A DNA stretch of 64,000 bases, taken from assembly GCA_963737905.1 (NCBI GenBank), contig CAVTUQ010000007.1:384001-448000 (forward strand), read 5' to 3'. The translations under genes were made by a program, and so were the position numbers. The notes beneath the pieces are model-generated. The model searched no databases and had not been told where the DNA came from. It saw nothing but the letters and a program-made list of their open reading frames with translations. This DNA comes from an uncultured delta proteobacterium. GTDB lineage: Bacteria > Desulfobacterota > Binatia > UBA9968. Positions within the stretch are counted from its first letter, which is position 1; every line of letters begins with the position of its first letter. Below, one piece after another: positions 17,838-28,620 of the stretch.

Positions 17838-18833
17838 TCACTTAATCACTTTATCCGCCCGCGCCAACACATTCGGCGGGATTGTAAGGCCTATCTGTTT
17901 AGCGGTTTTCAGATTGATGACGAACTCGAACTTTGTCGGTTGCTCGACTGGCAGGTCGCTGGGCTTGGCTCCCTTCAAGATTCTGTCCACGAAATAGGCG
18001 ACGCGCCGGTAACTGTCCGCGAGGTCCGCCCCGTAGTACATGAGGCCGCCGGCATCTACAGCTTCTTCGACGCCATACATCGCCGGCAGTCGGTTCTTTA
18101 ACGCAAAGCCCGCAATCCGTTGTACGTTAGCACGTATTTGCCGGCCTCCGCCGGGCACAAAGATTCCATCCGGGCGCTGCTTATTTAGGGCAGCGAATAC
18201 CTTCTCTAAACCGTCCGCATCGCGTACCTCCCAAGACTTAAGAGTCAATCCCAGCGCACGCGCCGTGACAGGGAGACCCTTTCTTACCTCGTTCGCAGTG
18301 CCCTGAGCGGCAGGATCGTAGAGAACCGCGACACTGGAAACCTTGGGAACGGCTTCTTTGAATAGCTCAAGCCGCTTACCACCTAGTTCACGGCCAAGGT
18401 TTGTGATGCCGGTAACGTTGCCACCGGGACGGGCAAGGCTTTCAACGAAGCCTGCTTTCACAGGATCAGTCCCAACGCCCACCATGACGATCGGAATCGT
18501 CTTGGTTGCATTCTTGGCTGCCCGGATCTCCGGGTCCCCTCCCGATACCACGATCAAATCAACCTTCAGACGCACCAGTTCAACGGCAAGTTCAGGAAGC
18601 CGATCGAGCTTACCTTGCGAATAGCGATAATCGAAGGCGATGTTTTGTCCTTCTGTGTAGCCAAGCTCACGTAGTGCCATCCGAATCGGCTTAGAACGCC
18701 GGAAATCAGTAGTGGGGTCGGTCGACGATAGATACCCTACTCGGGAAACTTTCTTCGGCTGCTGCGCGGCGGTGAGATTGCAAAGCGCTAAGAGCAGAGC
18801 GCCAAGCGCGAAAAGCAGGACATTTTTTCTCAT
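17838..18833 (-). CDS. ABC substrate-binding protein (ABC_sub_bind, PF04392-type), array unit
   Basis: Signal peptide; [58 protein letters not shown]. Confidence 0.93.
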   Translation of the reverse strand: MRKNVLLFALGALLLALCNLTAAQQPKKVSRVGYLSSTDPTTDFRRSKPIRMALRELGYTEGQNIAFDYRYSQGKLDRLPELAVELVRLKVDLIVVSGGDPEIRAAKNATKTIPIVMVGVGTDPVKAGFVESLARPGGNVTGITNLGRELGGKRLELFKEAVPKVSSVAVLYDPAAQGTANEVRKGLPVTARALGLTLKSWEVRDADGLEKVFAALNKQRPDGIFVPGGGRQIRANVQRIAGFALKNRLPAMYGVEEAVDAGGLMYYGADLADSYRRVAYFVDRILKGAKPSDLPVEQPTKFEFVINLKTAKQIGLTIPPNVLARADKVIK

Positions 18834-18882
18834 CTGTTCTCCGGTTCTTTCCGCTTGGCTCTTTACCCCATGCGCTTTGCCG

Positions 18883-18942
18883 TCATCGGATTACCTTATC
18901 GGCTCGATACGGCACGGACTGCGAAATCGTCACGCCGACCTG
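18883..18942 (-). pseudogene. Isolated SBP 3'-end stub (QVGVTISQSVPYRADKVIR*)
   Basis: Manual translation; matches the conserved array C-terminus with no upstream coding body. Confidence 0.75.
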
Positions 18943-19010
18943 AGCTTGACTCTAACGTTGATACCGACTCCAACTTGTCTGTAATCTAATGCCATTGTAA
19001 ACTCCAAGCG

Positions 19011-19295
19011 GTGTTAATCGATGAATTGCTGTGGCCTCAGGATCGAATTAATCATATCGGTAGACACCGCGTGCGACCGGAAGAGGTTGAAGAAGTATGT
19101 TTCGGCAACCCCTGGGTACGACGCACCAAAGCAACTGGCAAAAACCCAGTTTACTATGTCCTCGGCCAAACCCGTTCTGGCCGGTACTTGTTTTGTGTTG
19201 TGGTCCAGTTTCCCAATCGCAAAGGTTTCCCGGTCACCGCTCGAGCTATGACGGAAAAAGAAAAGCGACAATTCAGGCGATGGAAAAGACAATGA
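19011..19295 (+). CDS. BrnT-like toxin
   Basis: LLW...HIGRHRVRPEEVEEV...VLGQTRSGRYLFCV...PVTARAMTEKEKRQF; ATGA overlap with the antitoxin. Confidence 0.85.
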   Translation: MLIDELLWPQDRINHIGRHRVRPEEVEEVCFGNPWVRRTKATGKNPVYYVLGQTRSGRYLFCVVVQFPNRKGFPVTARAMTEKEKRQFRRWKRQ

Positions 19296-26513: not shown

Positions 26514-26567
26514 TGAGTTCTCCCGTGGGTTTTTCTGGCTCCCTGCTCTTAGCTTCATGCTTCCCTG

Positions 26568-27599
26568 CTATCTTATGACCTTGTCTGCCCTCGCTAGCAC
26601 GTTGGGCGGGATCGTGAAGCCGATTTGCTTAGCTGCTTTGAGGTTGACGATGAATTCGAACTTTGTGGGTTGTTCGACGGGCAGGTCGGCCGGCTTGGCG
26701 CCCTTCAGAATCTTGTCCACATAGGTGGCGGCGCGGTGGTACAGGGCAGCAAAGCTTACGCCATAGCTCATCAGCCCTCCATCGTCCACCCACTGGGACT
26801 GCGGGTAGATTGCCGGCAGCCGATTCTTTAGCGCGAGTTCCGCGATCTGTTTGCGTTTGGGATTGAAAACCGGAGTCTGCAACACGAGCATTGCGCCGGC
26901 CCGTTCTTTATTTGCGGCTTGGAATGCAGGCTCAATATCTCGCGGATCTGCTATCTCGAGGTATTGAAGCTTTACCCCAAAGGCCCCCGCGGCAAGTTCA
27001 ATTTCTCTCAAGGTTTGCGCGTTACCCGGTTCGGCTGAAGTTCCCAGAACAGCCACGCGGGAGAGCCGTGGAACGATCTCCTTGAGAAGCTCCAGTTGTT
27101 TTCCGCTCAACTCCGGTGAAAGCGCCGATAGACCCGTGATGTTTCCTCCCGGCCGCGCAAGACCGGCAATGAAACCATTGCCGACGGGGTCGGGATCAAA
27201 TGCCATGACGATGGGAATCGTAGCTGTTGCCTGTTTGGCCGCGCGGGTCATGGTCGGGCCGCTCGTAACGATGACATTTACTTTGAGGCGCACGACCTCG
27301 GCGGCTAGTTCACTCTGTCGTTCGACCTTGCCGTCTCCAGATCGCCACTCGATGACGATATTTTTCCCTTCTACGTAACCCAGTTCCCGCATCCCCTGAC
27401 GGAAGGCCTCGTTGCGAGCGACGTTTGAGGAAAGCGACGAGATGGTCAGGTATCCCACGTGCGGGATTTTTCTCTGTTGTTGGGCCGACGCGGTCGAACA
27501 AACCGCAAAGAGTGTGGCGCATATTAGAATTGCGGATTTGAGATTGCGGAATGCGGATTTTAGGTCAATGTCGAGACAGTGAAACAAAATTCGATCCAT
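26568..27599 (-). CDS. ABC substrate-binding protein (PF04392-type), array unit
   Basis: QQQRKIPHVGY...LARPGGNITG...[14 protein letters not shown]. Confidence 0.93.
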   Translation of the reverse strand: MDRILFHCLDIDLKSAFRNLKSAILICATLFAVCSTASAQQQRKIPHVGYLTISSLSSNVARNEAFRQGMRELGYVEGKNIVIEWRSGDGKVERQSELAAEVVRLKVNVIVTSGPTMTRAAKQATATIPIVMAFDPDPVGNGFIAGLARPGGNITGLSALSPELSGKQLELLKEIVPRLSRVAVLGTSAEPGNAQTLREIELAAGAFGVKLQYLEIADPRDIEPAFQAANKERAGAMLVLQTPVFNPKRKQIAELALKNRLPAIYPQSQWVDDGGLMSYGVSFAALYHRAATYVDKILKGAKPADLPVEQPTKFEFIVNLKAAKQIGFTIPPNVLARADKVIR

Positions 27600-27636
27600 T
27601 GCTGTTTCCCCTCAATTCGAAATTCGCAATCCGAAA

Positions 27637-28620
27637 TTATCTAATAACCTTGTCCGCCCGCGCCAGCACATTCGGCGGAATCGTGAGCCCGATCTGCTTC
27701 GCCGTTTTGAGATTTACCACCAGCTCGAACTTTGTCGGCTGCTCCACCGGTAGGTCGGCAGGCTTACGGCCTTTCAAGATTTTATCCACAAAGCTCGCTA
27801 CTCGTTCATACATCTCCATAACGTCCGCACCGTAAAACATGAGCCCACCTACATCCACCGCATCTCTGGCGTCATACATTGACGGCAACCGGCTCTTTAT
27901 GGCAAAGGCCGTAGTTCGTTCAAAGCTACGTTGCATCAGTGGGCCGCCAAGCACAGAGATTCCATCAGGGCGCTCCTTGTTTATCGACGCGAATACTCTG
28001 TAAAAGCCATTCGCATCGCGTACATCACGACGCAATATCGTTAGATTCAGCGCGCGCGCCGATGATGAGAGCACTTCCTTGAACTCCAACATGTTGCGCT
28101 TATTGTTAGCCTCGTAAAGGATGGCGATGCGGGTAGCTTTCGGAACCGCTTCTTTGAGCAGCTCCAGCCGTTTGCCGCCGAGATAACCAGAGATATTTAT
28201 ATAACCGGTAATGTTCCCGCCGGGACGGGCAAGACTTTCGATCAGGCCGGCCTCGACGGGATCGGTCCCACCACCCACCATAACAATCGGAATCGTCTGG
28301 GTCGCATTCTTGGCTTCCAGGATCGGCCTGTAGCCTCCCGCTACGAGAATGACGTCAACCTTCAGATTCACCAGTTCGGCCGCAAGCCCAGGAAGCCGAT
28401 CAAGCTTGCCTTCTGCACTTCGGTACTCCATCGAAATATTCCGTCCTTCGACGTAACCGAGGACTTGCAATGCCCGGCGAATCTCCTGCTTGCGGTCGGA
28501 GTCAAGTGCCGCCGGCTGCGTGGTCAGATACCCGATCCGTGCAACTTTTTGCTGCGCCTCGGCGAACCTGCCTGCCGCAAGAAGGCCAAGTGTAACTAGG
28601 CAGACAACTTTCTTATTCAT
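27637..28620 (-). CDS. ABC substrate-binding protein (PF04392-type), first unit of array
   Basis: QQKVARIGY...SLARPGGNITG...[14 protein letters not shown]. Confidence 0.93.
   Translation of the reverse strand: MNKKVVCLVTLGLLAAGRFAEAQQKVARIGYLTTQPAALDSDRKQEIRRALQVLGYVEGRNISMEYRSAEGKLDRLPGLAAELVNLKVDVILVAGGYRPILEAKNATQTIPIVMVGGGTDPVEAGLIESLARPGGNITGYINISGYLGGKRLELLKEAVPKATRIAILYEANNKRNMLEFKEVLSSSARALNLTILRRDVRDANGFYRVFASINKERPDGISVLGGPLMQRSFERTTAFAIKSRLPSMYDARDAVDVGGLMFYGADVMEMYERVASFVDKILKGRKPADLPVEQPTKFELVVNLKTAKQIGLTIPPNVLARADKVIR

Follow-up and report, generated by a model that had tools for sequence, protein, structure and literature searches.

The question raised by the DNA stretch studied here is whether a row of nine paralogous genes that all end in nearly the same 23 residues forms a cassette system of its own or a gene family whose members recombine by ordinary means. 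The stretch, hereafter the window, comprises 64,000 nucleotides (nt), i.e. positions 384001-448000 of contig C7 of the source genome G000, a 6.7-Mb bin of 46 contigs with 87% completeness and 6.7% contamination (the other C-numbers used below denote contigs of this genome). As claimed in an earlier reading of the bare sequence (the sequence-only reading), it contains nine co-oriented genes for PF04392-type binding proteins. In a profile search all nine (S1 to S9) were found on the minus strand at 17838-28620 with scores of 62-182 bits, above the Pfam cut-off of 25.9 bits, although six of them are intact (S1, S3, S6, S7, S8, and S9) and three are broken (S2, S4, and S5). The same reading had taken the array for an integrase-free integron analogue with the conserved 3' end as the point of exchange, and had put it forward as a candidate for an undescribed system. 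Neither proposal could be sustained, the tail being family-wide and no attC-like site having been found, and the array fitting the orphan binding-protein expansions. The array probably represents instead a tandem array within a lineage-specific expansion of orphan type-I binding proteins (PF04392/COG2984), the members of which recombine at their ends without a dedicated cassette system.

The 23-residue tail motif was present in all nine array genes, whose last 48 codons showed amino acid identities of 0.80-0.93. The homologues of known structure 3lkv (E 1.7e-34), 3lft (E 1.8e-26), and 6hni (down to E 5.9e-22) matched residues 63-341 of the query protein, and the C-terminal pattern (...N.K.A..LGITIP..VL... 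or LGITIPE.VL..A) was kept in 3lkv and 3lft. These alignments indicated that the tail belongs, at the level of the protein, to the PF04392 family as a whole. Because the tail is equally conserved in distant homologues, no selection for recombination is needed to account for it.

The synonymous sites of the tail were largely in agreement with this observation. Within the array, the same codon was used for the same residue at a frequency of 0.44-0.56 in the tail versus 0.29-0.58 in the rest of the gene. In the 15-residue tail block of 50 full-length genes of the genome, same-codon use was 0.474 versus 0.316 expected from the codon use of the family, which corresponds to an observed/expected ratio of 1.50 as compared with 1.09-1.27 for the core. 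The identity at 4-fold degenerate sites expected from position-specific base use was 0.49, and the observed values were 0.42-0.46; the residual same-codon excess in the tail is due to a position-specific preference for G-ending codons. In the last 16 codons (e.g. window 17841-17888), G was found at 0.64 of the 4-fold third positions versus 0.30 in the core, and the bias was also observed in two other genomes (0.51 versus 0.31). The sequence-only reading had named conservation at the protein level alone as evidence against itself; the conservation turned out to lie largely in the protein, with synonymous sites near random, and the G bias is the part that goes beyond it. A Chi-like recombination hotspot in the tail was considered and rejected, since the tail 8-mers were neither over-represented (observed/expected 0.84-1.26) nor strand-skewed elsewhere in the genome (leading-strand share 0.43-0.69, versus 0.71-0.75 for the most skewed words of the genome). 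Folding of the 95 tail sequences of the genome gave no consensus RNA structure (mean z -0.43 over 40 of them), Rfam produced no match in the region at E <= 1, and the promoter scan, which returned 4 sites in the region versus 6.9 +/- 2.4 in shuffles, placed no promoter-like site within the tail.

The ends and the cores of the array genes behaved differently when compared with each other. Whole genes of the array were 53-68% identical, tracts of about 88-92% identity occurred only at the junctions, and no high-identity core tract was found between genes within the array. S2 and S5 have 210 nt in common, made up of the tail and a 70-nt linker, and S4 and S7 have 220 nt in common, made up of stub C or the S8 tail, a linker, and the leader with the signal peptide; likewise, the junction from S3 to S2 is similar to that from S7 to S6. 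In 12 orthologue pairs, which are not independent because six of them involve S3 and four S1, the mean proportion of synonymous differences (pS) was 0.32-0.47 in the ten upstream windows of 24 codons each and rose to 0.71 and 0.61 in the two windows at the 3' end, where the proportion of nonsynonymous differences (pN) stayed low. Among 16,426 pairs of 182 complete genes (loci from two unpublished genomes being excluded from all counts except the same-family tally given below), the 4-fold identity of the last 45 codons remained at 0.46-0.56 while that of the core increased from 0.29 to 0.78. A similar decoupling was observed in 1,119 within-genome pairs, where the excess of close over distant pairs, about 0.25-0.50 in the core, shrank to 0.06-0.20 over the final 48 codons, and one within-genome pair combined a core identity of 0.81 (104 sites) with a tail identity of 0.39 (23 sites; binomial p 1e-5). 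The genome G023, which is assembled in 7 contigs, showed the effect weakly and in a small sample of ten pairs (core 0.48-0.59, tail 0.36-0.40). The nearest neighbours by core and by tail agreed in 13 of the 182 genes, a figure that carries little weight alone, the 135-nt tail being too short and too conserved.

A further case was provided by S4 and a broken copy at C29:90978-92005, which were identical at 36-40 of every 40 positions through a core of about 680 nt (about 97%) and at 31-35 of every 40 over the last 160 nt or so (about 83%), and were unrelated past both ends. Moreover, the S3 orthologues found on six metagenome contigs have different neighbours, both upstream and downstream. Taken together, these comparisons indicated that the cores of the genes and their ends have not had the same history, and homologous recombination or gene conversion between paralogues, with tracts that end in conserved blocks, would be the simplest explanation. 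To this extent, the expectation of the sequence-only reading that recombination end points cluster at the conserved 3' end was supported in a weaker form; its invariant 3' end, its three bare stubs, and its re-used linkers were all found where it had placed them.

Genome-wide, 95 tail motifs were found with a stop codon after them, and 17 of them lie outside any recognizable gene match of at least 40 residues. When the contexts were read, 6-7 of these 17 were taken to be shifted-frame ends of broken genes, which leaves 10-11 true stubs, versus none among the 61 copies of the mid-gene motif SLARPGGNITG (Fisher p = 0.007 for 11/95 versus 0/61). The stubs are in frame, with differences that fall mostly at synonymous sites. 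Within the array, stub A is followed by the leader of S1, stub C is the opening part of the junction module that also lies between S8 and S7, and a 48-nt linker is present in five copies of 63-85% identity. Five loci have one and the same architecture, in which a gene tail is followed by an (AAAATCN)n linker with a Shine-Dalgarno-like end and then by a stub, the joint being at ATCCC. In G015, which belongs to another genus, the orthologue of S5 has neither linker nor stub. A mini-open reading frame (ORF) at C37:142078-142446 joins a signal peptide straight to a 22-residue tail, the entire core being gone; after it come a copy of this linker repeat and a response-regulator/cyclase gene. The (AAAATCN)n repeat is a dispersed one: inverted copies surround the PF05635 gene of the array (window 24440-24470 and 24040-24065), further copies, at many loci of the genome (e.g. 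C12:80149, C14:172997, and C26:191893), lie in the 5' untranslated regions (UTRs) or just 3' of the stops of unrelated genes, and most genomes of the family contain the repeat.

The array is one of many in this genome. A hidden Markov model (HMM) profile built from the window genes gave 170 matches in 166 ORFs, many of the copies being frameshift-split, and 18 arrays with at least three hits, 17 of them strictly co-oriented, cover together 108,681 nt. By comparison with 166 family ORFs and 95 tail motifs, only four BPD_transp_2 loci were found. DNA matches to the array region were obtained from all 18 genomes of its own family, of which two are unpublished, from 5 of 5 of a second family, and from 0 of 7 of a third, and almost all of the matches listed fall on binding-protein genes. 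Arrays of 6-8 PF04392 genes are present in G018 and G023, and the 23 and 27 PF04392 matches of two better assemblies include arrays of this size. The closest named protein (72% identity) comes from a metagenome-assembled genome labelled 'Deltaproteobacteria bacterium', and close relatives are annotated by their sources as putative tryptophan/tyrosine transport binding proteins. Orthologues of S1, S3, S5, and S7 were found at 72-84% amino acid identity in other genera and on metagenome contigs, with ratios of nonsynonymous to synonymous substitution (dN/dS) of 0.18-0.40, which indicated that the paralogues are old and under purifying selection. The diversity is therefore old and was not made on site, so that the generation of a variable repertoire by the array itself, as put forward in the sequence-only reading, was not borne out. 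In the proteins, the N-lobe and the tail are conserved and the differences fall mostly in the first half of the C-lobe. Among the titles and abstract openings searched, including those on Binatia binding proteins, we found no published account of an expansion of PF04392/COG2984 (ABC_sub_bind).

The inverted toxin-antitoxin module and the four-helix-bundle gene announced for the array are indeed there. The antitoxin was recognized as CopG_antitoxin with 34.5 bits (cut-off 28), and the toxin as BrnT_toxin with 28.7 bits, below its cut-off of 34.5. The stubs on either side of the pair represent the tails of two distinct types of paralogue, and its homologue in G010, of another genus and 74% identical in nucleotides, adjoins a full binding-protein gene. 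Similarly, a PF05635 gene of 78% amino acid identity precedes the S5 orthologue in G015, so that the adjacency is kept. Toxin-antitoxin genes adjoin stubs not only in the window but also at C2:479-480 kb (DarT/NADAR), on C33 (HepT), and on C28 (PIN and DUF433), and array gaps hold further PIN and ParE matches as well as small DUF4926 and DUF2442 genes, which are presumably toxin-antitoxin-like. Of 39 PIN, HepT, and BrnT matches in the genome, seven lie in arrays or within 500 nt of them (PIN 4/30, HepT 2/4, BrnT 1/5), whereas the arrays with these margins make up about 1.9% of the genome and would be expected to hold 0.74, an approximately nine-fold enrichment (Poisson p 1.3e-5). A second PF05635 gene and insertion sequence (IS) elements (rve, IS110) also sit within arrays. 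The gaps of the arrays on C2, C27, C29, C31, and C33 were seen to contain PIN, HepT, DarT/NADAR, DUF4926, DUF2442, rve, IS110, and NMT1-type genes and a ParE fragment. Since PF05635 proteins resemble Avd, a diversity-generating retroelement was considered; it was rejected, as the window yielded no reverse transcriptase and the differences between tails and stubs are not adenine-specific.

These observations can be brought together in the following way. Each gene of the array has its own ribosome-binding site and a putative signal peptide, and the proteins would be exported and probably bind different small ligands, which might be passed to one or a few shared ABC permeases of the BPD_transp_2 type. 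One candidate for such a permease is the LivHMGF-like system found 1.7 kb downstream; alternatively, the proteins may act as sensors. The invariant tail would be required by the fold and perhaps by docking. The arrays would evolve by duplication, slow divergence, decay, and recombination of the RecA type or gene conversion, the tracts of which would begin and end in the sole stretches that are sufficiently alike in DNA, i.e. the last 50 codons or so, the short linker, and the region around the leader with the signal peptide. The outcome would be genes of mosaic structure, junction modules held in common, bare 3' stubs, and neighbours that change between genomes, and toxin-antitoxin pairs, IS elements, and PF05635 genes would settle in arrays that are dispensable and prone to recombination.

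Several points weigh against this explanation. The strong third-position G bias of the last 16 codons is accounted for neither by an RNA fold nor by a promoter or skewed words, and RecA recombination would not be expected to be efficient at the nucleotide identity of the tails, about 75-78%. The five tail-linker-stub loci joined at the same ATCCC are not easily explained by random deletion. As to the transport partner, no single permease of the COG4120 type was seen in this 87%-complete genome, the four BPD_transp_2 loci being apparently LIV-like with paired permeases, and both the diversity of ligands and the sharing of a transporter are matters that we infer. Finally, since metagenome contigs may be chimeric at repeats and polishing may mix paralogues, part of the decoupling may be technical.

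The first alternative to be weighed is that the tail and the leader block are a selected recombination handle, by which whole variable cores and small foreign genes are swapped through homology, also after DNA uptake, the toxin-antitoxin pairs protecting the arrays from deletion. The arrays would then be an integrase-free equivalent of cassette arrays in function and could be likened to minimal mobile elements. The S4 core shared with the C29 copy while both ends differ, the junction modules common to diverged genes, and the changing neighbours of the S3 orthologues would all be accounted for in this way. So would the bare tails, which have no mid-gene counterpart, are in frame, and differ mostly at synonymous sites, and the toxin-antitoxin genes, which adjoin stubs at four loci, occur in one more array gap, and are concentrated at arrays throughout the genome. 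However, the tail is equally conserved in distant single-copy homologues, its 8-mers are not enriched, and no core has been copied at high identity inside the array; moreover, the PF05635 gene and the toxin-antitoxin pair, being 74-78% identical to the corresponding genes of other genera, have long resided in the array and did not arrive recently. A selected handle is rather unlikely, and it is equally doubtful that the conserved ends serve as portable homology arms by which cores and stub-borne genes move between arrays and strains through homologous recombination alone, with toxin-antitoxin pairs as guards. If this were true, the soil lineage would possess an integrase-free cassette economy for its repertoire of periplasmic receptors.

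A second alternative is that the mosaics and the decoupling are technical, arising from chimeric joins, mixing of paralogues in polishing, and indel errors, and that the array is plainly diverging by vertical descent. It has in its favour the contamination of the bin, the short contigs from which most orthologues were taken, and the fact that every frameshift checked, i.e. one in S4 and four in the C29 copy, was a gap of a single base. One metagenome contig contains an extra base at 21885, beside the S4 gap, which might restore the frame, and in the two better assemblies 46 of the 50 PF04392 matches are without internal stop. The single frameshifts in S2, S4, and S5 may be indistinguishable from assembly errors. 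On array order and circular forms, further material was of limited use: the genomes of the same genus share about 78% identity and are in fragments, with contigs that end within arrays, and the best of the public read runs contained 0.25 of the sampled words, four runs consisting of short soil-metagenome contigs. The joints in the public runs were supported by 20-61 letters on a side at 90% similarity, which is the pattern expected from cross-mapping between paralogues. Nevertheless, the duplication of the 70-nt linker and the tail at five loci, the stubs beside toxin-antitoxin genes, and the fusion on C37 are structural features and therefore not products of polishing. In addition, the other long genes of the window are intact, and the discordance is present in pairs on the long contigs of this genome and, weakly, in G023. 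We thus regard a purely technical origin as improbable.

That the integron integrase of the genome shaped the array at secondary sites in the tail codons is hardly credible: the attC core consensus is GTTRRRY, which is matched in certain tails, where the codons for PPN (CCG CCC AAC) read GTTGGGC on the other strand, and on the antisense strand of stubs B and C (GTTGGGT and GTTAGGC), and the only integron-integrase match over its cut-off (TIGR02249, 456 bits versus 265) lies full-length on the same contig at C7:226498-227442 with two PF05635 genes within 3.5 kb upstream, but it is 174 kb away from the array, a degenerate 7-nt match is expected from the codons alone, the stub boundaries at ATCCC are 8-9 nt off the expected cut position, the flanks of the toxin-antitoxin pair are not one split site, and no attC-like imperfect palindrome follows the genes (by a fold search of the tails, Rfam, and inspection of the junction inverted repeats, which enclose the start codon and the signal peptide instead).

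As for these inverted repeats, the 5' UTR directly 3' of an upstream stop can be an inverted repeat of the signal-peptide coding region. Such hairpins were observed at window 21685-21843, 22784-22923, and 26412-26564 and, in a weaker form, at 18780-18880, 25382-25484, and 27536-27637; the resulting long hairpin extends from the ribosome-binding site through the start codon to about codon 20, and its stem of about 32 pairs is found in four of five aligned copies with little covariation. Pairing between UTR and signal peptide as a family-wide property was rejected (duplex energies of -46.5 for cognate, -44.9 for non-cognate, and -44.6 for shuffled partners). Since only 11 of the 77 genes reached z < -2, the pairing is a feature of a subfamily.

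The features of the array and its immediate surroundings are collected in the following table.

Features of the binding-protein array and adjoining DNA (positions in the window)
Feature	Position	Strand	Description
LIV-type ABC importer	11347-16130	-	Peripla_BP_6 protein, two BPD_transp_2 permeases, two ATPases; lies 1.7 kb downstream of S1 in the same orientation
Terminator-like hairpin and T-run	17808-17824	-	Directly after the S1 stop; pattern scan only
S1	17838-18833	-	Intact PF04392 binding protein, 331 aa, E 1.7e-46
Stub A	18883-18927, degenerate extension to ~18960	-	Decayed 3' end of a 'IPQSVLYRADKVI' type paralogue (ISQSVPYRADKVIR, then stop)
Toxin-antitoxin pair	19011-19570	+	Antisense; BrnT-like 19011-19295, CopG/BrnA-like domain in ORF 19097-19570
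Stub B	19614-19658	-	In-frame 14-codon tail and stop
70-nt linker, first copy	19659-19728	-	Common to S2 and S5; (AAAATCN)n repeat, Shine-Dalgarno-like end
S2	~19729-20760	-	PF04392 pseudogene in four frame pieces
S3	20762-21790	-	Intact PF04392, 342 aa, E 5e-52
S4	21842-22920	-	PF04392; single base missing near 21886, ~13 codons before the stop, which puts the tail motif out of frame
Stub C	22930-22974	-	IPPNALARADKVIR, then stop; 89% identical to the S8 tail
70-nt linker, second copy	22975-23044	-	Repeat of the linker at 19659-19728
S5	23045-24030	-	PF04392; signal-peptide ORF (ATG 24030) out of frame with the mature part
PF05635 four-helix-bundle gene	24058-24474	-	53.6 bits; inverted (AAAATCN)n repeats on both sides
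S6	24471-25433	-	Intact PF04392, 320 aa
S7	25479-26558	-	Intact PF04392; likely start 26513
S8	26568-27599	-	Intact PF04392, 343 aa
S9	27637-28620	-	Intact PF04392, 327 aa
Terminator-like hairpin	28709-28741	-	Upstream of S9; pattern scan only

Terminator-like sites were no more numerous in the region than in shuffles, and the hairpin after S1 is the probable 3' end of array transcription. Hydrophobic leaders ending in AxAQQ were apparent on reading the translations, that of S5 being out of frame. The absence of permease and ATPase genes noted in the sequence-only reading holds inside 17838-28620, where none was found, and does not hold for the surroundings, where the complete LIV-type importer, which has its own Peripla_BP_6 binding protein, lies downstream. 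The remainder of the window is rich in NMT1-type orphan binding proteins and in Amidohydro_2, UbiD, and MmgE/PrpD genes. Six NMT1-type genes (29042-30094, 34052-34860, 36881-37936, 41730-42740, 43920-45032, and 61854-62894) alternate with Amidohydro_2 genes, and one of the six is split, with an adjoining IS of the rve type at 34895-36004. A metallo-beta-lactamase-fold gene at 31655-32601 is apparently in two ORFs (Lactamase_B 32218-32601 and Lactamase_B_2 31655-32182), a stand-alone GIY-YIG domain ORF of 97 residues lies at 41319-41612 between NMT1 and amidohydrolase genes, and aspartate/ornithine carbamoyltransferase domains and a phosphoribosyltransferase domain stand together in a single ORF of 643 residues at 1835-3766, possibly a fused gene or else two genes read through as one.

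With the tail explained by the protein family and the array by an expansion of orphan binding proteins, the candidate for an undescribed system is removed. The interest that remains is evolutionary and lies in a very large family with variable cores and conserved ends of separate history, and in stubs and toxin-antitoxin genes at the seams. Recombination limited to the ends, the stubs, and the enrichment of toxin-antitoxin genes appear real enough to be worth a test at the strain level; if strain-level data confirmed them, they would show how a receptor repertoire can be remodelled in whole-gene units without a dedicated recombinase. Besides, the family offers over a hundred natural variants of a binding pocket on one scaffold, which could be used for ligand discovery.

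Among known systems, chromosomal integrons and clusters of attC sites lacking integron-integrases (CALIN) resemble the array in their co-oriented and tightly packed genes, their repeated junction sequence, their embedded toxin-antitoxin pairs, and their decayed members. The array fails every integron-defining test that was run: there are no attC-like sites found and no adjacent integrase, all nine genes are paralogues with start signals of their own, and any exchange would proceed by homology. The solved PF04392 proteins 3LKV, 3LFT, and 6HNI belong to the same Pfam family and match over nearly the whole mature chain; they are encoded by single genes beside their own permease and ATPase, whereas the genes described here are orphans and number over a hundred. 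The gene-conversion cassette families for surface variation, pilE/pilS, vlsE, and msp2, likewise have variable cores between conserved 5' and 3' blocks, co-oriented arrays, and many defective copies. In contrast to them, the array has no single expression site with silent partial cassettes and consists of full genes with their own signals, the cores of which diverged anciently.

The minimal mobile elements of Neisseria are variable contents between conserved flanks that are exchanged by homologous recombination and encode no enzyme of their own (PMC3787668). The array would share with them the exchange of variable content between conserved flanks; its flanks, however, are conserved blocks inside paralogues of one family and not single-copy genes. 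The closest parallel may be the orphan binding-protein expansions of the tripartite tricarboxylate transporter (TTT)/Bug type, which are found in Rhodoplanes sp. Z2-YC6860 (434 genes), a soil bacterium, and in Bordetella and Cupriavidus, form tandem arrays of up to nine genes, and have far fewer membrane partners, so that one shared permease or a sensing role has been proposed; the words 'recombination', 'gene conversion', and 'pseudogene' are absent from that paper (PMC5994714). The large number of paralogues, the few membrane partners, the soil habitat, and the tandem arrays, including the nine-gene precedent in Rhodoplanes, agree with what is found here. The present expansion differs in that its proteins are of the PF04392 family, with a type-I fold and a link to ABC transport, and in that its gene ends have a history of their own, accompanied by stubs, many broken copies, and toxin-antitoxin genes within the arrays.

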